DNA from: a virus
Length of the DNA stretch: 64,000 nucleotides
Direction: 5' to 3' (one strand)
Virus record (IMG/VR): IMGVR_UViG_3300032038_000071
Location: 1 to 64,000 of that record
Each line of letters opens with the position of its first letter. Positions within the stretch are counted from its first letter, which is position 1. Made by a program: the position numbers and the translations under genes. Positions 9,756 through 59,097 of this stretch are shown here, piece after piece. The notes beneath the pieces were generated by a model. It saw nothing but the letters and a program-made list of their open reading frames with translations, did not search any database and was not told the DNA's origin.

Positions 9756-9774
9756 CAGTGGAATTTTTCGATGC

Positions 9775-9810: not shown

Positions 9811-9829
9811 CAAAGCGAGTATTAAAATT

Positions 9830-10445: not shown

Positions 10446-10474
10446 ATTATAACACGTTAATTAGGTATTGTAAA
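10446..10474 (-). promoter_or_regulatory. promoter (TTTACA-N17-TATAAT)
   Basis: On the minus strand, -35 at 10474-10469 and -10 at 10451-10446. Confidence 0.55.
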
Positions 10475-10557
10475 TAACGCATCTTTTTCAGTCTCAGTAT
10501 GTTTTATCTTTTCCCAACAGACTTTTCCATACCCACGTATTTGATATTCCGGGTTCT

Positions 10558-37996: not shown

Positions 37997-40720
37997 CTAA
38001 CTTAATAAGAAGTCAAGTACCTCTGACTTACTCATATCAACCTTACCATCCACAAGAGCATCTGACATAGCACCTTTCTTCTGTACAAGTTCATGGATTC
38101 TTTCGTCTATTGTATCCTTACACATAAGGTTGTAGATTGTAACATTATGCTTCTGTCCTACTCTGTGGCATCTATCTGTTGCTTGGTCGTATAATGCTCT
38201 GTTCCAAGGTTCGTCAAGAAATATCTCAACTGTTCCTGCGGTGAGAGTGAGACCTGTACCCATAGCGCCAATTGTACCTATAATGTATTTACACTCAGGA
38301 TTATTCTGAAAATGATTTACATTTACCTGTCTATCAGCATCGTTTGTCTGACCAGTAATGACAACACCTTTATACTTCTTTGCAAGTCTGGCTCTAATAA
38401 CATCTGTCATCTGCGTCCAGTTAGAAAAGATAACAACTTTCTTTCCATTCTCTATTGCTTCTTCAACAAGTTCTTCCATTCTATCAAGCTTTGCACTTTC
38501 CTGTATCTTGCTTGAAAGAATACCTGTATAACCTGTAGCTTGTCTCATTCTGATTAATTCTGCAAGTGGATTAGGTGCTGTCTTTATGTTATCAATATTA
38601 CTCTGAATATCTGCTGTGACCTCTTTATAGATAACAGCTTGCTTTGGTGTCATATCAACGTATTCATCTATGTATGTCTTTTCCGGTAAGTCTAATACAT
38701 CATCTTTAAGTCTACGTAACATTATGTCATTAAGTCTTTCCTGTAACTCGTCAAGATTCTTATAGCCGACTACTTCATATCCGCCATAGCCACCCATTAC
38801 ACAATAATGATTTTTAAATCTGTAAAAGGCATTCTTTTCATAACCAAGCCATTTAAGAATTATGTATAAGTCCATAGGCTGATTCATAAGTGGTGTACCT
38901 GTCATAGCTATACGACATTCAGATTGTAATTTAAGAATACCTTTGCCCTGCTGACTTGATGGGTTCTTACACTTATGTATCTCATCAATAGCTATAATAC
39001 CTATCTCACCCGATTTGCATTTATTTGCGATTTCAGACACGATTTTTTCATCACGCATAGTTTCTACATTCGTTATAATAAAATACGCTCCAAGTGCTTC
39101 CAAATTGCAAATATCAGTATATTTATCTGCATTAGACCCTATAACAATTTTATCGTTCTTAATTCTCTGTCCAAGAATGTATGCTTCCTCATCTGAATGT
39201 GTATGAATTTCATTAACCCAGTTCCATTTAAGACCATTAACTCCGCATACTATAAGACAATGCTTGTATCCTTTCTGTAATTTCTTTGCTACTGCTATAT
39301 CAATGACTTGTTTTGTGTTATGAGTTACTACAAAATGCTCGGCTAAATACAGATGGTCATTACTATCAACTGTAATACACTTTGCGTCTGCATTATCAAT
39401 CTTTTCAATAGCAATTATATTTCTTCTTGTCTTGAAATGTCGGTCTTTCAATAATGATTTTTTACGAGTAAGAGTACAATACAGTTGAGGTCTATCAAAT
39501 TTAATAGTCAGATTGTAACTTGTTCCCGTAATCTTTCCATCATAACCACACTCACTTTCAGAGTAACTTACAATACCACCTAAACTTTCAACTAAAAATC
39601 TTACATCTTCACATAACTGTTTTGATACAGTTGAATAAGTTAATAAATTATCAGATGTTGCATAGCCATCCGTATCAATAAGTCCTTGTAATACTTCTGT
39701 TCTAACTGCGATTGAATTGTACTTGTATATATCTGGAATGAATTTTGTGTGAGAGTTTCTTCCATGTAAATCTAAATCAGTAAGTGCTTTTCTTATTATA
39801 TTAGTTTTGCCTTGTATATCAGTACCTTTAATATAATATTCAATATCTCCCATACTTGGTGCTGAATACAACTCATAGCCTTTAGGTAATCTTGAATTGA
39901 TATTATCTACCATTTCACTATCAATCGTAGTAAATCTTATTGTATGGGTAGTAATTCCACCATCACCTAACAATGCACCTAATACATAAGGCTCTATTGG
40001 CACTTCTTGATATTCAAATTGAACAGGTTTACATCTATCTATGTAATATTTGTAACTTCCAGAACCTTCGCTGAATAGATTATCTTTTCGTACATTTCCG
40101 AATTGGTCTTTCTTAGTAAACCATTCTGTATCAACTACTTTAGTTCCATGTTGGTCATGTATCTGCCATAAATGGTCTTTACAACAATCAATACTTACTC
40201 CATCAGAAAATGTAATACGATACATTTCAACATTCTTATGATAGTATGTGGCAGTTACTTTAGTTGGGCTACCGTCTTTACCAAATACATAATCTCCAAC
40301 TTCAATATCTTTCATTTCCTTGTACCCTGTTGGAGTATATATTTTAGTATTTAATGCAAGTGCTTTTCCAAGACCCTGTTCATCACCTAACAGCCATCTG
40401 TCGTACTTCAATCCAAAATTAAACCCATCAATCTGATGCTCAAAAGGTTTTGTTTTGAAGTTGAAGTTAGCTGGTGTTTCAGCTTTCTTATCTTCAAATG
40501 ATATGTACTTGCCTGAAATATCAAAATCAAAGTCCTGTAAGTTATCTATAAGATACTGTATCTTTTTTACAGGTATTTCCCACTCTTTTGTATCTTTGTT
40601 CCAATATCTTGTGGGCAGTTCTCTTACTGTATCAACCACTTTCTGGTTGTAGTCAAATGATACAAAAGCTGAATAATCATCATCTATATTTTTAGAGTTT
40701 TTAATCTGTATCGTTATCAT
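37997..40720 (-). CDS. SNF2-family helicase interrupted by an intein in the P-loop
   Basis: ORF track, 907 aa. DEQGLGK | intein | TKQVIDIAV restores the GLGKT Walker A. Also AIDEIH (DExH), MTGTPL, DEPWN, QATDRCHRVGQ. Confidence 0.9.
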   Translation of the reverse strand: MITIQIKNSKNIDDDYSAFVSFDYNQKVVDTVRELPTRYWNKDTKEWEIPVKKIQYLIDNLQDFDFDISGKYISFEDKKAETPANFNFKTKPFEHQIDGFNFGLKYDRWLLGDEQGLGKALALNTKIYTPTGYKEMKDIEVGDYVFGKDGSPTKVTATYYHKNVEMYRITFSDGVSIDCCKDHLWQIHDQHGTKVVDTEWFTKKDQFGNVRKDNLFSEGSGSYKYYIDRCKPVQFEYQEVPIEPYVLGALLGDGGITTHTIRFTTIDSEMVDNINSRLPKGYELYSAPSMGDIEYYIKGTDIQGKTNIIRKALTDLDLHGRNSHTKFIPDIYKYNSIAVRTEVLQGLIDTDGYATSDNLLTYSTVSKQLCEDVRFLVESLGGIVSYSESECGYDGKITGTSYNLTIKFDRPQLYCTLTRKKSLLKDRHFKTRRNIIAIEKIDNADAKCITVDSNDHLYLAEHFVVTHNTKQVIDIAVAKKLQKGYKHCLIVCGVNGLKWNWVNEIHTHSDEEAYILGQRIKNDKIVIGSNADKYTDICNLEALGAYFIITNVETMRDEKIVSEIANKCKSGEIGIIAIDEIHKCKNPSSQQGKGILKLQSECRIAMTGTPLMNQPMDLYIILKWLGYEKNAFYRFKNHYCVMGGYGGYEVVGYKNLDELQERLNDIMLRRLKDDVLDLPEKTYIDEYVDMTPKQAVIYKEVTADIQSNIDNIKTAPNPLAELIRMRQATGYTGILSSKIQESAKLDRMEELVEEAIENGKKVVIFSNWTQMTDVIRARLAKKYKGVVITGQTNDADRQVNVNHFQNNPECKYIIGTIGAMGTGLTLTAGTVEIFLDEPWNRALYDQATDRCHRVGQKHNVTIYNLMCKDTIDERIHELVQKKGAMSDALVDGKVDMSKSEVLDFLLS
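39317..40363 (-). mobile_element. 349-aa intein with LAGLIDADG homing endonuclease; class-3-type (Ala1, Trp-Cys-Thr signature)
   Basis: Residues 120-468 of the helicase. Block A ALALNTKIYTPTG (Ala in place of Cys/Ser), block B CKDHLW, LAGLIDADG motifs YVLGALLGDGG and LQGLIDTDGY, block F AKCITVD, block G VVTHN followed by Thr+1. Confidence 0.8.
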
Positions 40721-41069
40721 AGTTTTTATACCTTTCTTCTTTCATCTTTTTATATCGTTCTCTGTCTTTCTTTGGCAGATGATTTATTGACCACTCTTTG
40801 TCAGGCCACACATCTATCTTACTCCAAATATCATCATCACTTATTGGCTCATTTCTTATAAATCTCCAAGCCGCTTCACTTGTCTTAAACATATAATTGT
40901 AATCATAATATCTGTCTGTTACATAACCTCTTCTTCCGGGCATTTTCTGTATTACTCGATTCATTATGATTACAAGTTGTTCTGACGGTATCATTACAAC
41001 ATTCCAACCATCTTTATCTTTGATCGGAAAGTAAACTAACATTTGCTTCACCTCCTTGTTGTTTATCAA
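40701..41069 (-). CDS. hypothetical protein (122 aa)
   Basis: ORF track; first gene after the promoter at 41079-41107. Confidence 0.55.
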   Translation of the reverse strand: MINNKEVKQMLVYFPIKDKDGWNVVMIPSEQLVIIMNRVIQKMPGRRGYVTDRYYDYNYMFKTSEAAWRFIRNEPISDDDIWSKIDVWPDKEWSINHLPKKDRERYKKMKEERYKNYDNDTD

Positions 41070-41078
41070 CTTATAAAC

Positions 41079-41107
41079 ATTGTACTACACATTTATAATC
41101 TTGTCAA
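41079..41107 (-). promoter_or_regulatory. promoter (TTGACA-N17-TACAAT) with AATGTGTAG box
   Basis: On the minus strand, -35 at 41107-41102 and -10 at 41084-41079. Confidence 0.65.
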
Positions 41108-41108: not shown

Positions 41109-41141
41109 AAAAAAATCGTCACTCGCTGAAAAGTGACGATT
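41109..41141 (-). terminator. rho-independent terminator ending the 44.4-41.1 kb cassette
   Basis: 10-bp stem AATCGTCACT / AGTGACGATT, 8-nt loop, 7 T on the minus strand. Confidence 0.8.
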
Positions 41142-41146
41142 TTACG

Positions 41147-41497
41147 TTATATATTAAGTTGTTTAATCATAGAAACAATAGCATCTCTTTCAGCTTGGGT
41201 ATCTGTACTACTATATAATGTATGTATAAATTCACTCAACTCTTTACATACATTGTATATAGAATTGATTACTGCTGATTCCGTTACTTCTTGCATCTGA
41301 TATTTACGTTTGATTTCTCTATATAATTGATATTGAGGTAGTATGTCATTGAGTTCCTTTTCAACTCTGTTTGAGTTCTTACTATAATAAGCATTTTTTA
41401 TGATATACATATCTGCTAATATGCGACAGTTTTCCAATGTTGTATCACTGTTTTCAAGGTCTTGTATAGTATCTTCAATCTCCTGTATATCTAACAT
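41147..41497 (-). CDS. hypothetical helical protein (116 aa)
   Basis: ORF track. Confidence 0.5.
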   Translation of the reverse strand: MLDIQEIEDTIQDLENSDTTLENCRILADMYIIKNAYYSKNSNRVEKELNDILPQYQLYREIKRKYQMQEVTESAVINSIYNVCKELSEFIHTLYSSTDTQAERDAIVSMIKQLNI

Positions 41498-41648
41498 TCA
41501 GCACCTCCAATATCTTATCCAACTTCTTATTCTGTTCTTGCAGAATATCATGGATTTCTGCTATCTGCTTATTGTTGGTGTCAATCGTCTGTAGCTGTAA
41601 ACAGAAATCCATAATATTCACAAGGTCAATCATGCCAAGATTATTCAT
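41475..41648 (-). CDS. possible small ORF (57 aa, MNNLGMIDLVNIMDF...)
   Basis: Found by hand. TAATG coupling to the upstream stop. Overlaps the next start by 23 nt. Confidence 0.3.
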   Translation of the reverse strand: MNNLGMIDLVNIMDFCLQLQTIDTNNKQIAEIHDILQEQNKKLDKILEVLNVRYTGD

Positions 41649-42100
41649 TAATCTTCTATCTGACTAATACATCTTTCCATAGCCTGACGAGTTTTTTCAT
41701 CTGGTGCTGACTGCATCATAGAACGAAGCTGGTTTATCATACGCTTTGAATCACGGGAATATCCACTGTCACGACTATAGTCATTGGAATAATTAGAATA
41801 TCCATCACGGCTATAACCATCATTAGCATATCCGTCATAACTCATTCCACTCGAATAACCATTGTCGCTACTATATCTCCCCATGCTGTCACGTTTTGCA
41901 TTTCTACCTCTTCCACGTGCATTAGAATATCCATCGTTAGAATATCCACTTTCTTCCATCTGCATTATCTCATCAATGTAGTGGATAGAAGCTGTAAGTT
42001 TTTCAATTAACTCCAAAGAACCGGAAGTTACTTGACCCTTGCCTGCAAGTTTATCAAGTTCTTCACAAAGCATATCTCGGAGTTCTTCCATCTTCTTCAT
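41648..42100 (-). CDS. low-complexity protein with (D/N)GYS(R/N) repeats between helical ends
   Basis: ORF track, 150 aa. Central SGYSNDGYSNARGRGRN...DGYANDGYSRDGYSNYSNDYSRDSGYSRDS. Confidence 0.55.
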   Translation of the reverse strand: MKKMEELRDMLCEELDKLAGKGQVTSGSLELIEKLTASIHYIDEIMQMEESGYSNDGYSNARGRGRNAKRDSMGRYSSDNGYSSGMSYDGYANDGYSRDGYSNYSNDYSRDSGYSRDSKRMINQLRSMMQSAPDEKTRQAMERCISQIED

Positions 42101-42116
42101 AATGTTTACCTCCTGT

Positions 42117-42560
42117 CTATGCTACCCTATTGATTACTATGTTTGCGTTCTGTACATCTATAGGCTGTGTACTGCTATTCTCGATTGCAATAGTTGTACA
42201 GCAACCTTTAGGTACTGTAATGTAGGTAAATTCAGCCACGTTCCAGAAATCTCCAACTGCCGCCGGTGTCACGATTGCTCTACTTGTTGGTACTTGCTCA
42301 CCGTCTATAGTGAGTGTTACCTGTATAGGTTCAACTGTTCCACCTTCTGCTATTGCTATGTTAGAACCAAACATAACTGAATATCTCGCAAAGCAACCTG
42401 TAGGATTATTAACTATGCCTCGTAAAGTGAAGATACCCGAACCAGCACGATGAAAAACATATCCGCTGTTGCAAGGTATAATATCCTCAGTAAACAAAAC
42501 ATTCTGATTAGCAGGAATTGTCTGTAAAGCGTTTGCTACATACTCTGCCATAGTCAACAC
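42117..42560 (-). CDS. stand-alone C1q/TNF-like (BclA C-terminal-domain-like) protein
   Basis: ORF track, 147 aa. Beta-rich pattern and C-terminus ...IENSSTQPIDVQNANIVINRVA resemble the end of the B. anthracis BclA CTD (...SASIIIEKVA). Called from memory. Confidence 0.45.
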   Translation of the reverse strand: MLTMAEYVANALQTIPANQNVLFTEDIIPCNSGYVFHRAGSGIFTLRGIVNNPTGCFARYSVMFGSNIAIAEGGTVEPIQVTLTIDGEQVPTSRAIVTPAAVGDFWNVAEFTYITVPKGCCTTIAIENSSTQPIDVQNANIVINRVA

Positions 42561-42563
42561 CTC

Positions 42564-43412
42564 CTAAAAGCTACCGTTGCAACCACATCCGCAACCTGTA
42601 TTATTATTGCACTGGAATATAGGCTGTCTGCCATATACAGGAACAGTAGGAACAGGACAGTTAGAAAGTCTGTTATAAAGCTGGTCAACCTCATTGTTAA
42701 GACCCTGTGCTATAAATGCGTTCTGTGCTGTCTGACTTGCCGCAAGATTAGCCATTGTAAGCTGTCTCTCAAGGTCTGCAATCTTTGTATTCTTGCCATC
42801 CAGTTCAAGCTGGCAAAGTTTATCAATGATTGTCTGTGTTCCTCTTGTCTGACTGTCTATAATATCCCTTGTGTTCATCATAGACTGTGTTCTATCAGCA
42901 CAATTCTCTGTAGCTACTGTGTACTTGAGGTCTGCAATACCAAGTCTGTTTTCACAGCAACAATCGGCAAGCTGTGACTGAACACCATTAAAGCCCTGAT
43001 TCATGGCTGTCTGTGTGGCAAAAGCTGTCTGCATATTAGCCATCTGTCTTGCGTTTGCACCCTGTTCTACACCTGCAAAACCGTTGCAAAGTGCCATCTG
43101 AATATCACTGCCTGTATTGCAAAGCTGTGTTGACAGATTGTTTACTCCGTCTCTTATGGATGTGATGTTGTCATTAAGCATCTGATTCTGGAATCCTTCA
43201 CTTGTAATGTTAGCTTGGTTCATCCATGGATATATTGAATTATATCCACCACCAAAGCCACCATTACCGCCCCAACCATTACCGTTGAAAGCGAAAAGGA
43301 AAAGAACGAGAAGCCACCAAGCACCGTCTCCACCAAAACCACCGAAACCATTGTTACCGGTTACTGCGGCTACATCTGCGGCGGAAAGTCCGCCATTTTC
43401 TGCTAAAGACAT
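42564..43412 (-). CDS. Gly-rich, Cys-rich membrane-anchored protein
   Basis: ORF track, 282 aa. GNNGFGGFGGDG, TM AWWLLVLFLFAF, GNGWGGNGGFGGG, Q/N/A-rich helical region, CCC, and C-terminal CNNNTGCGCGCNGSF. Confidence 0.55.
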   Translation of the reverse strand: MSLAENGGLSAADVAAVTGNNGFGGFGGDGAWWLLVLFLFAFNGNGWGGNGGFGGGYNSIYPWMNQANITSEGFQNQMLNDNITSIRDGVNNLSTQLCNTGSDIQMALCNGFAGVEQGANARQMANMQTAFATQTAMNQGFNGVQSQLADCCCENRLGIADLKYTVATENCADRTQSMMNTRDIIDSQTRGTQTIIDKLCQLELDGKNTKIADLERQLTMANLAASQTAQNAFIAQGLNNEVDQLYNRLSNCPVPTVPVYGRQPIFQCNNNTGCGCGCNGSF

Positions 43413-43453
43413 AAGTTTGTCCTCCTTTGTGATTTATTTATAATTTTGCAAAA

Positions 43454-43651
43454 TTATTTCAGTAGGGATTGCATTTCATTTGCCATCTGTGACAGTCTGT
43501 TAAACTGCTCTTGTGACATTTTTCCAGAATTAAGAAGTTCTTGCACTTGCTGTTTAGGGTCTCCCTTAAAGCTATTTCTGAATTGCTGAAACTGTGCAAG
43601 CATATTATTCTGTGGTTTACGATTGAATAGATTATAGATAGGATTAGCCAT
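43454..43651 (-). CDS. hypothetical Q-rich protein (65 aa)
   Basis: ORF track. Confidence 0.5.
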   Translation of the reverse strand: MANPIYNLFNRKPQNNMLAQFQQFRNSFKGDPKQQVQELLNSGKMSQEQFNRLSQMANEMQSLLK

Positions 43652-44063
43652 TGTTATTCCTCCTTGTCATAGACCTGTTATTATGATTGTCAGATTGCGT
43701 TTTAAGAATGATTTGTTCAAGTCGCTTATCTAATTCAGCTTTAGTTACATAATCGTCTAAATTGACGTTTGGTGCGCTTGTAGCTGTATCTGTGTGTTGC
43801 TCTGCTGTGCGTTCTGAATAGTCAAATATTCTTAAAGGCATTGGCATACCACTTGTGTCGGTTGACTTGATGTAGAATACAGAATTTTCACTGTCCATAA
43901 GTAAGACTGAATTTCCTGCACCAACTAAATAACTCTTTGCACCTGCTTCACCTTGTACCCAGACTATTCCACTCTGCTGATTAGTCTGCGGTGGTTGATA
44001 TACTTGTGGCATTTGTTGATACTGTGGGTACTGATAGTTCATCGGAAAATAATTGTAAGCCAT
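43644..44063 (-). CDS. hypothetical protein with Y/Q/P-rich N-terminus (139 aa)
   Basis: ORF track. MAYNYFPMNYQYPQYQQMPQVYQPPQTNQQ followed by a beta-rich domain. Confidence 0.5.
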   Translation of the reverse strand: MAYNYFPMNYQYPQYQQMPQVYQPPQTNQQSGIVWVQGEAGAKSYLVGAGNSVLLMDSENSVFYIKSTDTSGMPMPLRIFDYSERTAEQHTDTATSAPNVNLDDYVTKAELDKRLEQIILKTQSDNHNNRSMTRRNNNG

Positions 44064-44068
44064 TTCTC

Positions 44069-44446
44069 TTACTCCTTTCTTTGCCAGTAATAGGTTACAA
44101 CTTCATCGCCACTGTCCCAACTGTCATAATAATTTCCGTCTATTGCGGTGACAACGTGTGTTCCTGTACATAAGATATAATTGCCTTGCGGATAATCTAT
44201 GCAGAAATCTCTGACTGTATAACAGTCCGGACAAGTGTTAGGTATAATATGTCTGCTATAATCATTGTTGCGTAAGAAGTTACCCCATACATTATTAGCA
44301 GATGGCATATCAGATAACATAAGTCCTTGTATTGCAAGTCTGATATAGACTTCTTCCCAAGACATTCCTAAAGATTTTGAGATAGCACGAATAACGCAGT
44401 CACCGACATATACGCTGTGAGGATTAGGGTTATATCTAATGAACAT
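44069..44446 (-). CDS. putative papain-like cysteine peptidase-fold protein
   Basis: ORF track, 125 aa. GDCVIRAIS (candidate Cys) and TGTHVVTAIDGNYYDSWD (candidate His/Asp). Called on motif only. Confidence 0.4.
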   Translation of the reverse strand: MFIRYNPNPHSVYVGDCVIRAISKSLGMSWEEVYIRLAIQGLMLSDMPSANNVWGNFLRNNDYSRHIIPNTCPDCYTVRDFCIDYPQGNYILCTGTHVVTAIDGNYYDSWDSGDEVVTYYWQRKE

Positions 44447-44482
44447 CGTGCTATCTCCTTTCTCTTTATAGACTTACAATAC

Positions 44483-44517
44483 AATAAAAAAGAGACTGTA
44501 GATTATACAGTCTCTTT
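44483..44517 (-). terminator. rho-independent terminator after the regulator gene
   Basis: 12-bp stem AAAGAGACTGTA / TACAGTCTCTTT, 5-nt loop, T-run on the minus strand. Confidence 0.8.
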
Positions 44518-44543: not shown

Positions 44544-44753
44544 TTACAGCACTTTTATCATCTTGTCCTTGATGCGCCTGATTAACTTACTCACCTTTGC
44601 TTCTGAAATATTCATCTGTAATGCTATATAGGTATTTGATTTGTTCTTTGCTCTGAGGTTGAAACATTCCAATTCCTCATCAGAGAAGTTACAACTATCT
44701 CTAAAATATTGCAATTCAAATTCAACAAAATCTTGAATAGGCGGTAATTTCAT
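44544..44753 (-). CDS. sigma-70 region-4-like HTH protein (candidate late-gene regulator)
   Basis: ORF track, 69 aa. SNTYIALQMNISEAKVSKLIRRIKDKM resembles a sigma r4 / ArpU-type HTH. Sits at the boundary of the structural module. Confidence 0.5.
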   Translation of the reverse strand: MKLPPIQDFVEFELQYFRDSCNFSDEELECFNLRAKNKSNTYIALQMNISEAKVSKLIRRIKDKMIKVL

Positions 44754-44763: not shown

Positions 44764-46206
44764 CTAGTCTGTAAAGCTAAGAACATACGTTATCTTCATG
44801 GTCTTATCTGCTGTCTTTGTAACTTGTTCATCCAAGTTATCTATTGTTGCAAGATAGTTGGTTGTCTTAATCATATTAAACCATTCGCTGTATGACGATT
44901 CCCATATAGCACTTACTAACTTATTGTCATCCAATATCTGTGAGACCATGTTGTAGCTCGGAACATTACTGTTGGTTAGATATACTGCACGAGCGCCCAT
45001 ATCAGCTTTCATGCCAGCAAAGTATGCCACCTCTTCAGTCGGATAGCTAAATCCTAGATACGTGCATCCGAATGTCGCTGTCACCGTCGTGATGTCAGCA
45101 TTATTCGTGATGTCCTCGAAGTAATGAATGCTATTGTTTGAATCTCCCGCATTGTATCGCTGAATAAGAATTGTGTCTGTCGAGAATGCTATGCCTGGAA
45201 TAAGGAAGTCAAGCTGTTCGCCTGCCGGATTCGCTACTGTAAATGCAGATATTGTGTTGTCCGGATTGATTCGAACAACCTGCAACGTCGCTCCGTTTTC
45301 AAGTCTGCCCCATTGACCTTGTCCGTAGCCAGGATATCCAATGCCTGCAATCATGTAATAGTATTCGCCCTGTTTTAAGTACCACGATGGCTCTCTGCCG
45401 TTTAATGCACTTACAAATGCTGACGGTAAACTTATCTCTGTTTCTGTAACAGGTAAGTATTCAGAGCCACTACCGCTTGCATATGCTGGATAGTTGTTTC
45501 TTAAATCAAGCTTTGACATTGGAACTTTGTATGTCTTTAGCTTAATTTTTCCTGTAGCACTCATGTGTTCTGCTGTATGGTCAGTTGTTGGAACTAAATT
45601 GTAATAGTCAACAAGTGTAAGTGTTGAATTTGTCCATGAACCCCTTACAATTCTCTGTCTTATACTTGGCATATTATCTACACCAACAGCTTGAGGTGTT
45701 CCACCAAGAGCAAAGTCACTTCTCTTTGTTGATTTAGCAAGTAAGCTTGTTGAATTTCCTTCACCTATATAGCCATGATTTGCTGAGGTAAGGCAAACAC
45801 AGTTTATGTTTCCGTTTGCCTGCGTAGTTGTAAAATCCCATACCATCTTGTATTTACCATCAGATAGCCAACCAGATTCTGATGAGTTATAAGAACCCAT
45901 TTCTGTGACAGAATCATTTGAGGTAACATCATATACTCCATTGGCTATCATCTTAACACCAGATGGGCATATTATATTGTTTGCATTTTCTGTGATAGCT
46001 GTGTCAAAAGCAAGCACTCCGCCCAATAAAGTAGGAATAAGACTTTGACGAACAGCATCCATATGAATCGGAGATATATTGAACATTCCCAAATCGTTAA
46101 GATATAGCTGAATGGCATTTGTAACCATGTTGTCATCTTCGTAGCGCTCAACTTCGCCAGTTTTAACATTCGTTAATTCTATGGTTGAATGTCCTTTTAT
46201 TTTCAT
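44764..46206 (-). CDS. tail-associated / receptor-binding candidate (480 aa)
   Basis: ORF track; last gene of the tail module. No motif recognised. Confidence 0.4.
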   Translation of the reverse strand: MKIKGHSTIELTNVKTGEVERYEDDNMVTNAIQLYLNDLGMFNISPIHMDAVRQSLIPTLLGGVLAFDTAITENANNIICPSGVKMIANGVYDVTSNDSVTEMGSYNSSESGWLSDGKYKMVWDFTTTQANGNINCVCLTSANHGYIGEGNSTSLLAKSTKRSDFALGGTPQAVGVDNMPSIRQRIVRGSWTNSTLTLVDYYNLVPTTDHTAEHMSATGKIKLKTYKVPMSKLDLRNNYPAYASGSGSEYLPVTETEISLPSAFVSALNGREPSWYLKQGEYYYMIAGIGYPGYGQGQWGRLENGATLQVVRINPDNTISAFTVANPAGEQLDFLIPGIAFSTDTILIQRYNAGDSNNSIHYFEDITNNADITTVTATFGCTYLGFSYPTEEVAYFAGMKADMGARAVYLTNSNVPSYNMVSQILDDNKLVSAIWESSYSEWFNMIKTTNYLATIDNLDEQVTKTADKTMKITYVLSFTD

Positions 46207-46218
46207 TTTGACCCTCCT

Positions 46219-48183
46219 TTATGATGTCGTTACTTTGGTGTATCGTATTACACCACATATTGTGACTACTCCTGAACTTCCTGCGAATTCGCCTGTAAGC
46301 GTTCCATTACTTTCCATATACAATCTATTGCTATACATATCGTAGCTAATCTGATCCGTAACATTGTCAAGAGGATTCCATCTACCATTTTGAAGTCCTG
46401 CATCTCTATACATCAAACTGTATTCAATGAGTACATCTATGTTGGTTTCTATATCTATCGTGAATGAAGCATTATCGTGTATTGTGGTTTCTTCGATGTT
46501 AATAGTTTTCTCCCATACATCACTGCCATCAATCCATGTGCCTACTTTCTGTTCTGTGGTTGAGTATGTGTGCAAAGATGAACTACCTCCACCTACAAAC
46601 TTATAGCCTTTTATCGAGTGGATATACGGAGCGTTCATAGCTATCGTTATTGATGTTCCACTACAAGCGGTGATATTCACCCATCTGTCAGAAGCTCCGA
46701 TAAGGTTTACTATAATTCCATCACTCAAAGTATTTAGGATATCTTCAACTGCAACTGTTCTTATATCTGATTCATGCGATGCACCACTAACAATCGTTAC
46801 AAAATCATAATTTTCAAGGGCATCTTCAAGCGTATATGTTCCTCCTGTGCTTATGGTGGATGATAATAACTCGGTTGATTCAAACCTTGTGTTTTCTCCT
46901 CCACTAGAACCACCACTGTTCGAAATATAAGCAACCGTATAGTCTACTGAATACACACCATCTTGAGCGTAACTTCCACCCTGTGTATTATATAGCTTAC
47001 ATAAATATCTATCACTGTCTGTATCAACGCAAACATTCAAGCCATTGTAATAAGGTGGTGCTCCACTCATATCTGCTTCTGCAAATATAGAAAGTAGTGT
47101 TACTTCTGATGGTTTTAATGGGTTTCCATTTGCGTCACAAGGTATTAACCAAGCGTATCCATTTGTATTATCAGTTCTGCTAACAATGGTAATATCACTC
47201 TCACTTCCACTACCAATACCATAAGTCTTATCCATATATCTTATCTGTGATGGATAAGTAAATCCTATTTTTTCAAGCACAAAATCATCTATAATAGCAT
47301 TCCATCCATGTGCATTAATTACAAGATAGTATTGACCTGTTAATTCTGAAATGTCTAATTCTTGATTACTGTATACAGTGTTAGCGTTTGCATAATCAAC
47401 AACCGCCGCCCACCTTGAATCAGTGGCATCTATTACTTGAACGCTTGAAGGGGCACTGGCTTGCAAACCAATTTGAACGTTCCATCGTGCTTGCTGTGCT
47501 GAACTTCCTCCACCATAGCAAGATGACGTGGTCAAGTCGAAACCGATTTTATCCCAAGATGTAACATCAATAGGTGTTGCATAGTAGAACGTACCACCTA
47601 TCTGCATTCCGCCATCCCAACTTACAGTGATTTGGTCTGATGTACTACTTACATTCATTGCAGATTCCATTTTTGATGATATAGATGACATATCAATAGT
47701 GGTAGTTGAGGATATTGTACTTCCATTAGGAATAAATCTAATTGTTCCATCGTTCTTTTGGTCTGTGGTGAGAGCATTGTACTCGTCAAGTGTAATTTCT
47801 TCAGCACTTGATCCGCCACTCTCATATGCGTTCTCCCATTTCTGCGTGGCTGAATTGTACTTTAGTACCTGTCCATTTGTCGGACTTGATAAATCTACAT
47901 CAGTTAATCCTGAAAGCGTAGACGAACCGCCACCACCCGAAGGTGTGTCCCATGTGCCGTCAGCTTTGAGATATTTATCCTCATCTCCTGCATTTGGTTG
48001 TGGCACTCGCCCACTCTCGCCATCTTCGTTTGCGGATGCTCCGACCATAATCTTGGCTGCACTTTGCTGATTATTATACATCTGCTGGTCGATTATGTCT
48101 GTATTGGCATTAATTACACCAAGATTATAATAATCAGTTGTTGCAGGCTTCGTTAGATTGAAATGTGCGCTCTGTGAAGCCAT
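46219..48183 (-). CDS. tail fibre protein
   Basis: ORF track, 654 aa. N-terminus FNLTKPATTDYYNLGVINANTDIIDQ is the common fibre N-terminal motif of Firmicute phages. Has Gly/Ser linkers. Confidence 0.65.
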   Translation of the reverse strand: MASQSAHFNLTKPATTDYYNLGVINANTDIIDQQMYNNQQSAAKIMVGASANEDGESGRVPQPNAGDEDKYLKADGTWDTPSGGGGSSTLSGLTDVDLSSPTNGQVLKYNSATQKWENAYESGGSSAEEITLDEYNALTTDQKNDGTIRFIPNGSTISSTTTIDMSSISSKMESAMNVSSTSDQITVSWDGGMQIGGTFYYATPIDVTSWDKIGFDLTTSSCYGGGSSAQQARWNVQIGLQASAPSSVQVIDATDSRWAAVVDYANANTVYSNQELDISELTGQYYLVINAHGWNAIIDDFVLEKIGFTYPSQIRYMDKTYGIGSGSESDITIVSRTDNTNGYAWLIPCDANGNPLKPSEVTLLSIFAEADMSGAPPYYNGLNVCVDTDSDRYLCKLYNTQGGSYAQDGVYSVDYTVAYISNSGGSSGGENTRFESTELLSSTISTGGTYTLEDALENYDFVTIVSGASHESDIRTVAVEDILNTLSDGIIVNLIGASDRWVNITACSGTSITIAMNAPYIHSIKGYKFVGGGSSSLHTYSTTEQKVGTWIDGSDVWEKTINIEETTIHDNASFTIDIETNIDVLIEYSLMYRDAGLQNGRWNPLDNVTDQISYDMYSNRLYMESNGTLTGEFAGSSGVVTICGVIRYTKVTTS

Positions 48184-48197
48184 TTATATACCCTCCT

Positions 48198-49949
48198 TTA
48201 TCCATGTATGAATGAGTTTTCCAAATCTTCATGTGTATAAGGTGTTAAGCCTTGATGTGTATAATTGCTCATAGCATCCTTATTCATAAACAACATATCT
48301 GTAAATCCTTGAAGCTGTATGCTTGTAAGATTAAACATATCTAATTCATTTGTAAGACTTGCTCTGTCTGGTGTGTGTTTAACAAGCGTAGCCACAGGAG
48401 TAAAGTTATTCTGTACTTGTGGACTTGTGAAGTTGATTACATTAAGGCTTTCTTCAACTTCGATATTTCCATCCCAATCTCCAACTTCAAGCAATCCTTG
48501 TCCATGTATGGCTGCCTTGATATTCTCTATTGGAATACTAGCACTTCCACCTGACATATTAAGCTTTACAACAAATTTGAATGTTCTTGCACTTGTTATT
48601 GTGATGAAATAAAGAAGTCTGAGAACGTGTTTACCATCTATCCATGTTTCAGTTGGATAGTAATTTGTAACCTCAGCACTATTAATCTCATAAGTTATCT
48701 TTCCTATTGCTGTAGTCTGTGTGTCTACATCTAACAATATCTCAGCATCAAATACTGCCAATGTTGTTTGGGTTGACGTAAATCTTATGCTGATAATATT
48801 CTTATTCTCATTGTTTAGTACATTCAACGCCACAGCATTTGTATATGTGTAATACTGTTCTTTTGTTATCTGTATATCATCTTTTAAATCCTGCTCTGTA
48901 ACGCTGTATTCATATCCAGCAATAGTAGCCTGTTCTGTATAATCCTCTGTTCCTGATGCTCTAATATTCTGTTCAATCAGTAAAGGTCCAGAATATTCAA
49001 TCTCACATACAAGACTATCTCCAAACTCTGTTTGAACAATGCTACCAAGTTGAATGTTGTAATCAGATACAATCATATTAATCTTAGCAGGACTGTATGC
49101 GACTTTGGCAACGCTTGTAAGAATTGCATTTGCAATAACTGTCAATTCTGCATTTGTCTTGTCCAGAATAAGTAAGTTGTTCTGAATACAGATTGTTTTA
49201 TCGCCATCACCAACAGTAGCTGTTGTTCCTCTTACTGAATTATCAAGAATAACTTGAGAGAATACAGGAACTGTAAATGATTCAAATTCCGATGTGTTCT
49301 TTTCATAGCTGTCTGTTATGTCATAGTTTGAGTATGTGGATATGAATTGTAATACACCTTCTCTTGAAATGTTAGCATTACAAGCCTGTATTGCACATAT
49401 ATACCTGAGCATATCCACGAAGCTGACACCCTTTATCTTCTGTGTCTTTGCTATCATAAGATTATCATTTGGAAGTGATACAGTATTGTCATATGGAAGA
49501 TTTACAAATTCACATAGACCTTCTCTGAAATCCTTCAGAGATATTTCAGAATGAGTAGCGAATAATTCATTCCAATATCGTGTTACATTTATCTTTGCTT
49601 TGTAATACAAGGCATCATATGCCACAATATGTCTTGATGTATCACTTCTTGAACGATTACGCACACAGGAATCAACTCTACCATAGAATAATGGAACTTT
49701 CACAGCGGTTGAACTTTCATCAGCTTTGACCATCTGATAGACTTCTATAAATTTCTTCTCTATGTCTGGAATGTCATGTACATCAACCTCAAACTTATTG
49801 GCATTACATTGTCCAATAGTAAATCCCTCTGTGCATAACACTTCATCTAAAGACAGACTACCAGATTCAATTCCTGTTGTTATATCTGGTATGTTAGGAT
49901 TATAAGGAAAATGTATTACCGTTTCTCTATATACTCTAATATCAGCCAT
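48198..49949 (-). CDS. tail-associated (Tal-like) baseplate protein
   Basis: ORF track, 583 aa; called on position after the Dit-like gene. Confidence 0.5.
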   Translation of the reverse strand: MADIRVYRETVIHFPYNPNIPDITTGIESGSLSLDEVLCTEGFTIGQCNANKFEVDVHDIPDIEKKFIEVYQMVKADESSTAVKVPLFYGRVDSCVRNRSRSDTSRHIVAYDALYYKAKINVTRYWNELFATHSEISLKDFREGLCEFVNLPYDNTVSLPNDNLMIAKTQKIKGVSFVDMLRYICAIQACNANISREGVLQFISTYSNYDITDSYEKNTSEFESFTVPVFSQVILDNSVRGTTATVGDGDKTICIQNNLLILDKTNAELTVIANAILTSVAKVAYSPAKINMIVSDYNIQLGSIVQTEFGDSLVCEIEYSGPLLIEQNIRASGTEDYTEQATIAGYEYSVTEQDLKDDIQITKEQYYTYTNAVALNVLNNENKNIISIRFTSTQTTLAVFDAEILLDVDTQTTAIGKITYEINSAEVTNYYPTETWIDGKHVLRLLYFITITSARTFKFVVKLNMSGGSASIPIENIKAAIHGQGLLEVGDWDGNIEVEESLNVINFTSPQVQNNFTPVATLVKHTPDRASLTNELDMFNLTSIQLQGFTDMLFMNKDAMSNYTHQGLTPYTHEDLENSFIHG

Positions 49950-50403: not shown

Positions 50404-53400
50404 CTATCTCCTTCCCGTCTGCTTATATTTCTTATCTTCCTCATCCCACACAGCTTGTGCAACAACTTTACTGTTTAATTGTAACACAACAGGTGCGTTA
50501 TTGCTACTAATATTCATATCTGCTAGGGCAGTCTTAAATGCGTCAATCATTGTAGCAAGAGGTGTTTCAATATTAGTACCGCTAGACTGGTCACCCAACA
50601 TAGCAAGAAACTCTCTGTTTGGTGGTATAACCGCACCCTGTGCCAGTAGAGGTATTTTTGGGATTGAAGAGAAAAATGGTAAAGAAGAGAATAAACTTGT
50701 AGCACCAAATTTAATCCCTCTCAATCTGTTCAAAGCAGTATTAATTGCACTGAATGGAGTAGCTACTACAGTATTCATTCCAGAAAGCAGACCATTTACA
50801 GTATTCTTCATTGATTCTGATATATCTGTGTTAAATTCTCCAAAGACTGTACTTCCGTTGCTGAACGCTTCTTGTACTGTATTCCATGAATCTTCAAAAG
50901 TTGTTCCAAAGAAAGTAGGTAAGTCTGTAAATGCACCTTCAATATTATCTTTAACACTTGTAAAATGGTTTGTCAGAGAATCCTCAGCGAATGCTTGTTT
51001 AGCTCCTGACAATGTTTCAGCAAATCTCTCTTGCACATCAGATGGCATACCATTAAATGATGTAACAACCTCTTCGGCTCTTGCTTCAAAAGTAGGTTTA
51101 ATAGAATCCTCATTGAACTCTTCCTTGATACCTTCTTTTGTTTGAGCAAATAATTCTTGAACATCGGATGGCATACCATTAAATGATTCTACAGTATTAT
51201 CCTTTGTCTGTTGCATCAATTCTTGTACTTCTGAAGGCATACCGTTGAATGTTTGTACTGCATCATCCCTTGTTTGTTGCATGAGTTCCTGAACATCTGA
51301 CGGCATACCATTGAATGTCTGAACAACAGTATCTTTGGTTTCCTGCACTTTTTCTTGAACGTCTGACGGCATACCGTTAAATGTCTGAGTGACAGCTTTT
51401 TCGGTTTTCTTCATAGCTTCTTCAACGTCAGACGGAATGCCATTAGCCATAACGTGTACTGATTCTGTTATATTCTCTGTACCCCCACTCGTTTCTTGGG
51501 CGGCTTTTTGCATAGCCTCTTTTGCAGATGTAGGAATAGAATCAAGAGAATCCTTTACGTCTTTTGTACTCTTTTTTGTTTCTTCCTGTAGTCTGTTTAT
51601 TTCTTCAACATAATTATCACAGCTATTTTTAAACTTCTCCCATTCTTCATCTGAAACAAGTTCGTGAAGTCCAAGAACATCATACGAATACTGCGCACGT
51701 TGGAATGTTTCATTTACTGAATCAGAAATCTCTTTAGCTTTTTTGTTAGCTTTATCAAGTGTGTCTGGTCCACCTGTAAGCATATCAGATATAGCATTTC
51801 CAAGAGTAGTACCACCAGTTGTTTGCGAATATTCTGTTGCGGCTTTACCAATTTCATCTGCGGCTTCATACAAATACTTTGTAGGACCGTGTGACATTTT
51901 CTGATATTCAGCCGCCATTTCATCGTCACCAAAAGCAGTTGCTATAACAGAACCTATGCTACCAGCTAAACTACTTCCAAACTCAAACAGCGCATACCCA
52001 GCGCCAATAGCACCGACTACCTTACCGACTGATGTACTAAAGAATTTAGACAATGCACCCGAAACTTTGCCCGCTAAACCACCACCTGTGGCAGATGTAA
52101 CTCCACCACTGATAGCATCTGCTATATTTGTGCTGAATAATCCAGTTATTTTACCCCATAGCCATTTAGCACCAAATATAGCTAATAAGGCTGTACCTAT
52201 ATCTGCAAGTGCTTCTGGATTTGAGGCAAGTCCAAGTAACGCTTTTCCTAATCCTTTGATTAATGCAAGTGCTACTTTACCAAGTTCGACAATTAATCCT
52301 AGCCAATCTATATTAGTAAGTAAATCAGCTATTGCTTTTCCTACTTCATACCAGTCCACTGTTTCTATAAAGTCTGCAATCGCACCAATTATATTCTTTG
52401 CACAATCTGATAAGTCAGTTGCTAGTTGTGCAAAATCAATACCATTTAAAAATTCATTGATAGCATTACCTACTGTTACGCCTAATTGAGAAGATACAAT
52501 GAAACTACTTAATCCTGTAAGTATTCCACTTGCAAGATTTGATAGGTCAGCACCAAGTGTGTCCCAATGAATATCTTGTATAAGGTTCTTTAAACTTTCA
52601 CCAAGTTTAGAACCAAGTTGTTCCCACTTAAGACCCTTCTCTGGGTCTACAAGTCCTGCGGCAAAGTCGATAATAGCATTTATCTTTCCAGCAAAAAATC
52701 TTCCTACCGTCTCTGGTTCTATTGTATCAACAAGACCATTAACAGCATCAGCTATCTTGCCACCCAGCTTCTTCCAAGGTACTGTTTCCCACCAAGTAGC
52801 AACTGTATCCATGAATGCCATAACAGTATCACCGATAGTTCTGCCAAGTAAATCAGCATCCCAACCGTCAATGAAACCACCAAGTATTCTGCCGATATTC
52901 TGTGCCCATTTAACACTCTTTGGTCTAAATTTCTTAACCCAATCATCAAACCTCTCTGTGATTATATTAAGTTTATCAGCAAATGCACTTCCGACACCTT
53001 CCCAATCGCCTTTTGCAATAGCTTCTTTTATAATCTTTGCTAAATCACTTTCAGCGGCAACTTTCTCAAACTCACCTGTAAGTCCGTCTGCGGCTCCACT
53101 TCCACCGCCACCACTATCCTTAGGCTGGTCTATAACAAGAAGATTATCATACTCGGCAAGTTCTTTATTAGCTTCTTTAGCCGCACTACCTACACCCTTA
53201 ATGCTATCAGCATAACTATCGTCAGCTTTCTTGGCTTTATAGATATAAGACTGTCCTGTAATTATTGCAAAGAAATTTGCTAAAGCGGTTGCGGCGGCAG
53301 ATATTAAATCAATGATATAAACAAGTGCGGGTGCTAAAGCGTGCATGAGAGGTTGTGCCATAGTTCCCATACTTAACTTCATGGCATTAAATGAGTTCAT

Positions 53401-57769: not shown

Positions 57770-58087
57770 TTACTCATCATTTCGCTTATTTCGTGCTTTT
57801 GTTGTCTGCTTGATAGATTTATCAGCTTGCGCTTTTAAAGTCTCTATTTCAGCTTTCAGTTGCGTTATTTCAGCATTTAATTTATCAATCGTTTCTGACT
57901 TTTCAATAAATGCTTTTCGTAAGATATTAGGGTCATGTGGTACACTCGCCTGTACCACATTTCCCTTTTCATCTATTACGTCATACCCTGTTGCGGTATA
58001 TTTAGCAACTTCATTTTCGCTTACTCGTAAAACCTTATTAGCTTTTCTAATTCGGATTTCTTTCTGCATAAGTCGCACCTCACTCAC
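57770..58087 (-). CDS. coiled-coil protein (105 aa)
   Basis: ORF track; directly after the capsid gene. Confidence 0.5.
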   Translation of the reverse strand: MSEVRLMQKEIRIRKANKVLRVSENEVAKYTATGYDVIDEKGNVVQASVPHDPNILRKAFIEKSETIDKLNAEITQLKAEIETLKAQADKSIKQTTKARNKRNDE

Positions 58088-59097
58088 TAGGCTGTTGTAG
58101 TTGAAGTAGAAGTTCCGCCACCAGCAGATACGTTGAACTGAATAGCATTTGACTTATTTTCAAGTACGAATACGTCCTCGAATGATTCCTCGTAGTAAAC
58201 GTACTTGCCCTCTGACATAGCAGATGGAGCATCAAGTCTACTGAATGTGTAGCTTACAGGTGTGATAACTGCCATTGGGTGAACAAGGAACATATTAATC
58301 TGCTGTGCATCAGCATCAACCGCATAGTCACTTGAAAAGTCATAAAGTGTTTTCATAAGTGTTGAAGGAACACCGATTACCTGTACCTGGTCAAGTCTAT
58401 TAACTCGTCTATCAATAGCGTTTGGACCACTTGTAATATCCATTGAACGAGAAATCGTCTCTGCGTCTTTGAGAATCTGAAGAACCTCAAATGGAACATA
58501 GAGAATACGTCCATTAGCAGGAACTCTACCGTTATCCATAGCAAGCATAAGAGAATCAAATACTGAAAGGATATTAGCTGTTGTAAGAACAGTTGTATTG
58601 GCAGAATGTGTCTGTGCTGTATCAGGATTCTTCATAGAAGTCCAATCTGCATAAATCTTGCTTATGCAGTAAGCGTCCATTTCTGGGAACTTATGCTCCT
58701 CATTGAATACCTGTGTGATATTTCCGATTGTTGCAACCATATTGGTTTCATCAATATCTCTCGGATGAACAAGTGTTGACCACTTTCTCTGATTTTCAAG
58801 TGTCTTACTTACCCAATTGTTGCTGTAATTTCTCTGTGCAAATGCGATTGTATCTCTGTCGGCATCAATACGACCTGTTGTTGAGATACTTGGAATCTCA
58901 ATAGTCTTTGAGTTTACCCATCTATACTTATTATTGTTTGGTGTTGCATAAAGAGCGCCATAGTTAAGAACGTATGGGAAGTTCTGCTCTAATGCTCTCT
59001 GATATTCGTCAGCGTAATTAAGTGCGCCCATGGCTGTTGAGCCATCGTATGTACCGGTTGTACCATTGTTAGCTGGTGCTACATAAGATGTTGGCAT
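58087..59097 (-). CDS. major capsid protein
   Basis: ORF track, 336 aa. Follows the scaffold gene. Strong SD. Confidence 0.75.
   Translation of the reverse strand: MPTSYVAPANNGTTGTYDGSTAMGALNYADEYQRALEQNFPYVLNYGALYATPNNNKYRWVNSKTIEIPSISTTGRIDADRDTIAFAQRNYSNNWVSKTLENQRKWSTLVHPRDIDETNMVATIGNITQVFNEEHKFPEMDAYCISKIYADWTSMKNPDTAQTHSANTTVLTTANILSVFDSLMLAMDNGRVPANGRILYVPFEVLQILKDAETISRSMDITSGPNAIDRRVNRLDQVQVIGVPSTLMKTLYDFSSDYAVDADAQQINMFLVHPMAVITPVSYTFSRLDAPSAMSEGKYVYYEESFEDVFVLENKSNAIQFNVSAGGGTSTSTTTA

Follow-up and report, generated by a model that had tools for sequence, protein, structure and literature searches.

The IMG/VR virus record IMGVR_UViG_3300032038_000071 contains, between its tail and replication genes, a compact unit of small genes. 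The DNA analysed is made up of positions 1 to 64,000 of the record, one strand, 5' to 3', and this whole stretch of 64,000 nucleotides (nt) is called the window. The genes of the unit are named g1 to g8 in transcription order, and g0 is a helix-turn-helix (HTH) gene directly upstream. The conserved module is composed of g1 to g6 together with g0; g7 and g8 are lineage-specific. The module is portable, as the same run of genes is found in unrelated phage backbones, and it moves horizontally between phages of gut and rumen bacteria. The reading preferred here, and held only tentatively, is that of a mobile accessory module building a cysteine-stapled stalk-and-knob assembly anchored by the g4 protein. 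The strongest clue is the constant pairing of g4 with a stand-alone protein of predicted knob fold, g5, encoded immediately downstream.

The genes and hairpins of the unit are listed here in transcription order, with protein lengths in amino acids (aa).

44544..44753, minus strand: g0, 69 aa, LuxR/GerE-type (sigma region 4-like) HTH protein (Pfam GerE)
44489..44517, minus strand: upstream terminator-like hairpin with a 12-bp stem, the loop TAATC and a T-run, about 42 nt before the ATG of g1
44069..44446, minus strand: g1, 125 aa, predicted cysteine peptidase-like enzyme with a Cys-His-Asp triad
43644..44063, minus strand: g2, 139 aa, with a Y/Q/P-rich disordered N-terminus
43454..43651, minus strand: g3, 65 aa, Gln/Asn/Met-rich (17% Gln, 14% Asn)
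42564..43412, minus strand: g4, 282 aa, core protein, described from the alignment of homologues
42117..42551, minus strand: g5, 144 aa, predicted stand-alone jelly roll of the TNF/C1q/BclA C-terminal domain type (AlphaFold2 and Foldseek)
41648..42100, minus strand: g6, 150 aa, with a Gly/Tyr/Ser/Arg/Asp/Asn low-complexity centre (GYS/RG)
41475..41648, minus strand: g7, 57 aa, coiled-coil-like, lineage-specific (1/81 loci, tblastn)
41147..41497, minus strand: g8, 116 aa, helical, lineage-specific (18/166 loci, tblastn)
41112..41143, minus strand: downstream intrinsic-terminator-like hairpin with a 13-bp stem and a T-run, closing the unit

The eight open reading frames (ORFs) g1 to g8 lie between the two hairpins, all on the minus strand, and are tightly packed or overlapping. 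The original prediction, made from the letters of the window, had described a unit of seven to eight genes isolated by strong terminators. Hairpins at 44517-44489 and 41143-41112 do bracket eight genes, of which only g1 to g6, with the HTH gene, are conserved. The protein features listed in that prediction are all borne out by translations, composition and alignments. The papain-like motifs it noticed in g1 correspond to the invariant residues C17, H97 and D108, and the C1q/TNF-like, BclA-like domain it noticed in g5 is recovered with AlphaFold2 and Foldseek. Its statement that no product looks like a standard virion, lysis or replication protein agrees with the lack of any known-family match.

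Co-occurrence was scored in 104 g4-encoding loci that have at least 2.6 kb on each side of g4, and g1 is encoded in 97 of these. Type A is composed of the loci with g1 upstream of g4 (n = 81). All 81 encode g5 and 68 encode g6 (tblastn), and the gene order is colinear on one strand in 81/81. A weakness that had been attached to the original prediction, that the genes might not co-occur outside this genome, is removed by these loci. Type B is made up of 16 loci in which the arrangement is permuted and the kinds of gene are kept. Their order is HTH, g2-like, g3-like, g4, a different Cys-Cys beta protein, a small coil, g6-like and g1. The g2 and g3 genes are too divergent and of too low complexity for tblastn and were judged by the character of the ORFs in their positions. 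In 89 of 107 loci, the ORF that comes first after g1 has an N-terminus rich in Q/Y/P/N. In the position after g5, 92 of 100 loci have an ORF in which G/Y/S/R/D/N make up at least 70% of a 40-aa window.

The families are large. Counted as clusters in a 90%-identity protein collection, g4 has at least 8000 members, g5 has 3005 and g1 has 2408. A g4 relative is encoded by 510 IMG/VR contigs and by 185 stretches of species-representative genomes, from which 80 loci were kept. Nearly all of these 80 come from metagenome-assembled genomes, mostly of ruminant gut or rumen, and they are assigned to Lachnospiraceae, Acutalibacteraceae, Ruminococcus, other Clostridia, Erysipelotrichaceae and Bacilli. 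A few loci binned under other phyla are read as mis-binned phage contigs. The matches are all from gut or rumen samples.

The backbones that carry the module differ in size and gene order. In 40-48-kb siphophages, including the cultured Butyrivibrio phage Ceridwen, the module follows the holin and endolysin genes and is itself followed by the integrase or early genes. An integrase-bearing phage of 53 kb has it behind a Sigma70_r4-like gene, with terminase and portal further downstream. In an SPbeta-like phage of 154 kb, HU is on one side of it and YonG/terminase on the other, and in the present 65-kb phage it is flanked by the tail fibres and the replication genes. Holin or endolysin genes adjoin the module in five of nine annotated contexts, and in two cultured phages it is found among early or recombination genes. 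Clostridium perfringens phage XP41-N3 possesses a compact set of g2-like, g3-like and g4-like genes and a gene for a Cys-rich beta protein, located between the antirepressor and Gam/Erf. In the crAss-like phage cr125_1, the g4 homologue stands beside endolysin, holin and LysB-like genes, and the module adjoins virion structural genes. The neighbours of g4 in Bacteroidota phages encode a CC-containing beta protein, a beta-domain-plus-coil protein and a protein with an RG/DY-rich tail. Ceridwen is the only cultured close relative, and its host is Butyrivibrio fibrisolvens. This is a non-sporulating species. The published description of Ceridwen gives neither functional nor proteomic data for the module genes.

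Some carriers show features of their own. The 154-kb SPbeta-like contig (L162) encodes YonG, YonJ, YonD and YonB domains. It has in-frame TAG codons at 8083-9987 where homologues have Gln, as does cr125_1 (L169) at 5713-7661, and stops in both are TAA or TGA. Both phages therefore read TAG as sense. Such reading is already known for crAss-like phages. Homing-endonuclease genes of the NUMOD4, HNH or I-HmuI-like kinds lie beside or inside the module in L165 (8031-8576), L172 (7594-8124) and L168 (5003-5623), and another lies several kb downstream of it in L171 (15348-15959). Their presence is consistent with a recombination-prone region. At the g5 position, XP41-N3 (L173, 4424-4801) encodes a beta-rich protein of 125 aa whose N-terminal motif, CNRRCNCCNRR, we take to recall the Cys-rich N-terminal connectors of endospore-appendage (Ena) subunits. 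An Ena/DUF3992-type spore-appendage subunit was suspected here and was set aside, as Pfam gives no match.

The module proteins are nearly absent from annotated families. Scans of all ten proteins against Pfam, NCBIfam and PADLOC gave nothing significant besides the HTH protein, and none of the PADLOC 2.0 component models matches g1 to g8. In PHROGs, g1 to g5 match only families of 'unknown function'. Single-sequence and profile searches of the PDB with g1, g2, g4 and g5 gave no family placement. The source names of ten database homologues are all 'hypothetical' or absent. No Rfam family matches the region, and a literature search on TNF-like or BclA-like phage decoration proteins gave nothing relevant.

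The g5 protein is confidently predicted to be a jelly roll of the BclA/ExsFA/C1q type. The AlphaFold2 model is all-beta with a predicted local distance difference test (pLDDT) score of 91.6. Foldseek against the PDB places the F-BclA and BclA C-terminal domains, BxpB and ExsFA at the top (entries 9h38, 3tyj, 8d02, 1wck and 7r1m), with E-values of 5e-7 to 1e-5 and template-modelling (TM) scores of 0.63-0.72. Further matches are EDA, C1q, cerebellin, the short tail fibre of cyanophage A-1(L) and the central spike of phi812. Against BFVD, TM scores reach 0.8-0.9 for stand-alone proteins of about 135 aa from gut siphoviruses, podoviruses and myoviruses, followed by collagen-like fibres. The invariant residues are E3, N7, Q10, C27, H34, R35 and the pair C117-C118. 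A profile search of 1.84 billion representative proteins gave 903 clusters at 50% identity. The best 150 of the 903 are about 100-196 aa long, and no large fusion or collagen region is found among them. By sequence, g5 belongs to no Pfam family (the only match at an E-value of 1 or below, unrelated, is at 0.19) and no NCBIfam model, and phmmer and profile searches against PDB sequences returned no BclA or ExsF entry. In type-A loci, g5 is encoded directly after g4. The true start of g5 is probably the ATG at 42551, because homologues begin MAEY.

The g4 protein has three parts. The N-terminal part is composed of an acidic tail followed by Gly/Phe tracts around a hydrophobic core of 12-13 residues, AWWLLVLFLFAF, with Trp at both edges; the first 75 residues contain no Lys or Arg. 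The middle is a Q/N/A-rich helical region of about 200 aa that varies by block insertions and deletions, which we judge from the alignment to be typical of fibrous stalks. The C-terminal part is a Pro-rich segment followed by a GCGCGC tail. Near-invariant motifs are CCC, DKxCQLE and ASQxAQ, and the protein has 12 Cys in all. Searched against PDB sequences, the g4 profile gives only weak coiled-coil matches, to Med21 and ZorA (ZorA tail, E 0.011). Full-length homologues are encoded by Bacteroides uniformis phage C3_41T2LP (hhalign probability 99.8%, E 3e-29), by crAss-like phage cr125_1 and by Clostridium perfringens phage XP41-N3. Two g4 homologues bear the depositor labels 'viral fiber' and 'spike protein'.

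The g1 protein carries, by its sequence, the putative catalytic triad of clan CA, without placement in any family. Alignments of 46 locus-derived and 52 database homologues contain the invariant residues N8, D16-C17, R20, W30, H97 and D108. Most members also carry a CPDC motif, which type-B members do not. This motif was considered as thioredoxin-like and the idea was rejected, the sole support being a glutaredoxin match with an E-value of 1.3 and the motif being absent from type B. The AlphaFold2 model, built with database homologues, has a pLDDT of 94.1 and an alpha+beta fold. Its best Foldseek matches are YopQ and Josephin-type deubiquitinases and are weak (E 0.05-0.3, TM 0.43-0.49), so that no solved structure in the PDB matches significantly; the PDB profile search also gave nothing relevant. 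The family corresponds to phrog_3754 (3e-26), and the only Pfam match is sub-threshold, to Phage_YunG-like (0.051). Members of the g1 family are also found as solitary genes in Tsamsa-like Bacillus phages, where they are named 'putative peptidase', in Geobacillus phage GBK2 and in Lak megaphages.

The remaining products are small. In g2, the disordered N-terminus is followed by a conserved beta-rich core of about 60 aa (IVWVQGEAGAKSY...YIKS.D.SGMP) and a C-terminal amphipathic helix (alignment). This protein matches phrog_21718 (1e-28), has no PDB match and has no Pfam match across all 36 family members. The g3 protein is read as helical from its sequence and matches phrog_22984 (8e-21). It may resemble STI1-type Met/Gln-rich motifs, a likeness that Pfam does not confirm. 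Analogous small ORFs are present in L105 and in XP41-N3. The stretches of g6 on either side of its low-complexity centre, N- and C-terminal, are likewise read as helical. A coil similar in size to g7 occupies a comparable place in L105. The g8 protein has no family match in Pfam or PHROGs.

The g0 protein is probably the module's own regulator, judging by its sequence and position. It matches Pfam GerE with 26.9 bits (cut-off 23.5, E 3.6e-6), with Sigma70_r4_2 sub-threshold, and its only PADLOC match is a weak CasR-like one (0.005). By tblastn, g0 is found in 23 of 166 loci, and similar small HTH genes lie directly upstream of the module in L165/L166, L170, L171 and L105. The original prediction had supposed that the unit has no consensus sigma-70 promoter and depends on the adjacent sigma-r4-like regulator. 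A small sigma-region-4/GerE-type HTH gene does recur directly upstream of the module in unrelated backbones, and no sigma-70-like promoter is found in the stretch from the hairpin to g1. A hidden sigma-70 promoter at this place was considered and rejected, since there is no room for it and the -35 region is poor.

A hairpin upstream of g1 is a recurrent element. In 38 of 109 distinct loci, a stem of at least 9 bp with a T-rich tail precedes the g1 ATG (median distance 39 nt), compared with 1.7 +/- 1.4 in dinucleotide shuffles. A subfamily has a 10-bp stem starting GC(C/A), the almost invariant hexaloop TT(C/T)AT(T/C) and a T-run. Hairpins of this subfamily were sought in 1.9 Mb of loci on both strands, and 19 of 20 lie within about 200 nt upstream of g1. 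Compensatory changes are found at 9 of 10 base pairs of the stem; the set was selected for pairing, and therefore the position bias and not the pairing is the independent evidence. The window hairpin, with its loop TAATC, differs from the hexaloop type and is of a type common to L002 and L048. Hexaloop examples are located in L001 (about 10457-10506, minus strand), L003 (about 4575-4606), L023 (about 1055-1100) and L115 (about 1246-1271). The upstream hairpin probably serves as an insulator or attenuator and moves together with the module, and the hexaloop form may be a module-specific attenuator or a protein-binding RNA. In the window phage, transcription would reach the module either by late-operon read-through past the attenuating hairpin or through a g0-dependent promoter that is not of the sigma-70 kind.

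In the proposed mechanism, g4 would form an elongated, oligomeric and probably trimeric helical stalk. The hydrophobic segment of g4 would fix the stalk in a hydrophobic surface, either the infected cell's membrane or some other one. Trimers of g5 would cap or join the stalk, and vicinal-cysteine motifs (CCC and GCGCGC in g4, CC in g5 and its positional analogues) would staple both proteins by disulfides or metal. The g1 enzyme may cleave one module protein to mature it, as its invariant triad suggests. The g2, g3 and g6 proteins could serve as adaptors, chaperones or matrix, g3 possibly as a chaperone for the hydrophobic segment. A stalk-and-knob is suggested because the g4-g5 pairing is constant, the knob fold caps fibres elsewhere and both proteins carry vicinal cysteines; the complex, its stoichiometry and its location are inferred. 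The purpose is a guess, namely a function at the cell envelope, for instance keeping out other phages or assisting exit, and not a central one in the virion. An accessory role in or on the infected cell appears likelier than an integral place in the virion, given the hydrophobic N-terminus of g4, the mobility of the module between unrelated virion types, its placement at junctions or among early genes and its insulation by hairpins.

Several points weigh against this stalk-and-knob mechanism. Searched with the g4 profile, the PDB yields no significant match among solved fibre proteins. The hydrophobic segment of g4 may not span a membrane, because it is short (12-13 residues) and lacks flanking Lys or Arg. 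No signal peptide is evident on inspection of the translations of the other module products, so that a stalk pointing outward would meet its partners only after the membrane is breached. The hosts and their habitat are strongly reducing, which favours metal over disulfides. The neighbours of g4 in Bacteroides phages have no detectable sequence homology to g5 and g2, and the analogy is one of position and composition only. Finally, g1 is not obligatory for g4, because it occurs as a solitary gene in Tsamsa-like phages and because the Bacteroides and crAss-like phages with a g4 gene yielded no homologue of it.

Beyond this assembly, it is conceivable, though unlikely, that the module is a widespread and hitherto undescribed phage system by which gut bacteria, once infected, are made to assemble a layer or fibre coat of covalently cross-linked protein. 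Such a layer would be composed of an anchored Cys-rich stalk, a TNF-like knob, a Gln/Tyr-rich and Gly/Tyr/Ser/Arg-rich matrix and a protease or transglutaminase enzyme, all of which is put forward with the same doubt. It would be used at the envelope of the cell or around particles after their release, as an improbable-sounding but imaginable viral counterpart of exosporium or cornified-envelope assembly. Its control by the module's own GerE-type regulator and the conserved attenuator hairpin is equally a speculative part of this picture.

Virion decoration is a rather unlikely alternative that deserves to be kept. Here g4 and g5 would form a head- or tail-side fibre with a lectin-like knob, added to finished particles with g1, g2, g3 and g6 as assembly factors; it would serve, for example, adherence to gut mucus or plant fibre, a purpose held with similar reserve. 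The g5 fold is that of fibre knobs, of phage receptor-binding tips (A-1(L), phi812) and of viral collagen-like proteins. The module follows tail and lysis genes on the same strand in the window and in the 40-kb siphophages, and its place beside virion structural genes in cr125_1, the labels 'viral fiber' and 'spike' and the restriction of all matches to gut or rumen samples point the same way. A specific docking site is, however, hard to explain for a module that moves among unrelated capsids and tails, and the placement among early or recombination genes in two cultured phages also counts against decoration. Decoration proteins do not usually have an N-terminus that is hydrophobic and Gly-flanked. 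The original prediction had offered capsid or tail decoration as its alternative; the unrelated virion types and the early-gene placement have weakened it, and it stays as a rival. The terminator-like hairpin that separates the module from the morphogenesis operon also counts against decoration. A moron-type fitness module, which would protect the infected or lysogenic cell from other phages by superinfection exclusion or abortive infection, is quite unlikely. In such a system, g4 would sit in the membrane, g5 would act as the sensor and the g1 protease would be effector or activator. This reading is in keeping with a terminator-insulated cassette that has its own HTH regulator, with a variable place usually at junctions of functional blocks (next to the integrase in L171), with the homing endonucleases beside the module in several loci and with the weak match of the g4 profile to the ZorA coiled-coil tail (E 0.011). 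It is opposed by the lack of a PADLOC model match, the lack of a sigma-70 promoter for prophage expression and the presence of the module in virulent-looking phages, including the window phage with its full replisome. Three low-complexity proteins and a fibre-knob fold are, as far as we know, not typical of defence systems.

A role for g1 as a leader peptidase is improbable. Like C39, it would remove the acidic N-terminal residues of g4, about 20 in number, and the Gly-rich hydrophobic N-terminus thereby exposed, fusion-peptide-like or bacteriocin-like, would disrupt membranes at lysis or after release; this second step is equally improbable. The window g4 N-terminus, LSAADVAAVTGN, fits the pattern LSxxELxxIxGG, which we take to be that of such leaders. 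Several g4 homologues have (D)xxAAVxGNNGG motifs and Bacteroidota homologues have ...AM(N/M)..NGG stretches. Most g4 members, however, have a Pro-rich VMPVAPMYGG in place of a helical leader, and the leader-like motif is confined to a minority. The weak fold matches of g1 are to enzymes that cut after Gly-Gly, and the spacing of C17, H97 and D108 is one that we take to resemble C39 and Josephin-type enzymes, whereas Pfam Peptidase_C39 gives no match. Adjacency to holin or endolysin in five of nine annotated contexts would suit a function at lysis. The loci examined contain no ABC exporter or transporter, the g4-carrying Bacteroides and crAss-like phages have yielded no g1, and g5 and the low-complexity proteins are left unexplained. 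Decoration or remodelling of the spore or exosporium surface of a spore-forming host, the idea raised in the original prediction, is very improbable. The best fold matches of g5 are indeed the exosporium proteins F-BclA, BclA, BxpB and ExsFA, the composition is rich in Cys, Tyr, Gly and Gln, the regulator is of the GerE type and many putative hosts are Clostridia. The full-length core protein and analogous modules are, however, present in Bacteroides and crAss-like phages, the host of the cultured relative Ceridwen is Butyrivibrio fibrisolvens, no sequence membership in an exosporium or coat family is found and g5 lacks a collagen region. The SleB-like gene that had been cited in support is about 21 kb from the module in the window and is present in 4 of 166 loci (tblastn); this link is dropped because the gene is too distant and not consistently present. 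The tentative stalk-and-knob reading is the one retained.

Nearly all genes of the window are on the minus strand. Other features of the window are as follows.

61630-63378, minus strand: portal gene, in the head region of the window
58087-59097, minus strand: major head protein gene, in the head region of the window
50404-54261, minus strand: tape measure gene, in the tail region of the window
44764-49949, minus strand: three large genes of distal tail or fibre size, the upstream flank of g0
41079..41107, minus strand: candidate near-consensus sigma-70-type promoter, TTGACA-17-TACAAT, matching at 11/12 positions, just past the downstream hairpin
20019-20684: SleB-like Hydrolase_2 gene
1731-2156, minus strand: gene for a protein with three transmembrane segments, a holin candidate, preceding the endolysin gene
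731-1639, minus strand: endolysin gene (Amidase_2 and PG_binding_1), in the lysis cassette of the window

Judging by its sequence, the promoter at 41079..41107 starts the replication-gene unit and so marks the outer boundary of the module. The downstream replication block is composed of a SNF2 helicase (with an intein), DnaB, primase, PolA, a sliding clamp, RecA and a clamp loader. The SNF2-family helicase gene (37997-40720, minus strand) is intein-split, with a LAGLIDADG_3 match at residues of about 340-390 and SNF2 matching residues 95-713. The first gene past the module is located at 40701-41069 on the minus strand, and its listed TTG start is probably wrong. An alternative ATG at about 41040-41042, 27 nt downstream, is preceded by AAGGAGG and gives a product beginning MLVYFPIKDK.

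The lysis cassette of the window directly follows the small terminase gene in transcription order, about 40 kb from the tail genes, which is an unusual place (731-2544 and 3629-4114, minus strand). A gene for the large terminase was not identified within the window and may sit past its ends. At 59887-60361 on the minus strand, two small membrane-protein ORFs separate the minor head protein gene from the head-region genes that come next; one is of 71 aa with two hydrophobic segments and the other of 91 aa with one. No integrase turned up among the scanned ORFs of the window, a scan that covered part of the ORFs. In three 40-kb siphophages, a SleB-like Hydrolase_2 gene is located about 1-3 kb past the module (L171, 13266-13838; L172, 11944-12426; L001, 3394-3969); this placement may be no more than a common trait of the phage group.

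Gut and rumen phages commonly carry the module, and none of g1 to g8 is in Pfam. Its core protein g4 spans phages of Firmicutes and Bacteroidota, including crAss-like phages. Defining the function of the module would annotate thousands of 'hypothetical' genes at once and might uncover a novel means by which phages alter their own particles or the cell that they infect. The conserved-loop hairpin that travels with it may be a new regulatory RNA element. The module is directly testable in three cultured carriers: Butyrivibrio phage Ceridwen, Clostridium perfringens phage XP41-N3 and Bacteroides phage C3_41T2LP.

Several known systems share features with the module. Josephin and C39 peptidases of clan CA have, like g1, a Cys at a helix start, His and Asp on C-terminal strands and an upstream Asn. 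The g1 protein is much smaller than these (125 aa), has an extra CPDC in most members and has no Pfam or PDB sequence match. Inner-membrane spanins (i-spanin, Rz-type) resemble g4 in having an N-terminal hydrophobic anchor, a long helical region and conserved Cys, and holin or endolysin genes are adjacent to the module in several phages. In contrast to spanins, the module is found mainly in phages of Gram-positive-type hosts and in the window lies about 40 kb from the lysis genes, inspection of the translations revealed no spanin lipoprotein partner in the cassette, and cr125_1 already has a separate LysB-like gene. Morons and lysogenic-conversion cassettes are likewise insulated by terminators, found in unrelated backbones and located between lysis genes and integrase or early genes in temperate siphophages. 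The present module differs from them in having six to seven genes rather than one or two, in lacking a recognisable sigma-70 promoter and in being carried by virulent-looking phages too.

The exosporium nap combines a fibrous stalk, a trimeric knob and proteolytic maturation. The predicted jelly roll of g5 is the fold of BclA and BxpB (ExsFA) in the nap and of F-BclA at the tip of F-ENA, and g5 stands alone, as BxpB/ExsFA does (about 140-170 aa). Unlike the nap proteins, g5 has neither sequence homology to them nor a collagen region, stalk and knob are separate genes, and the module is phage-encoded, also in phages of non-sporulating Bacteroides, with a g4 stalk that is helical and Cys-rich. 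Viral fibre-with-knob proteins, such as the collagen-like or C1q fibres of Caudovirales and giant viruses and, by analogy, reovirus sigma1 and T4 fibritin, also consist of a stalk and a trimeric beta-sandwich head. They are single chains encoded in morphogenesis modules, whereas here the head is separate, the N-terminus is Gly-flanked, Cys clusters are present and the unit is mobile. The BclA-BxpB/ExsFA nap, together with the viral fibre-with-knob proteins, comes closest to the module in fold and logic. The module is rated as a probable variant of the fibre-with-knob kind that has been split into separate genes and supplemented with an enzyme, a regulator and an insulator.

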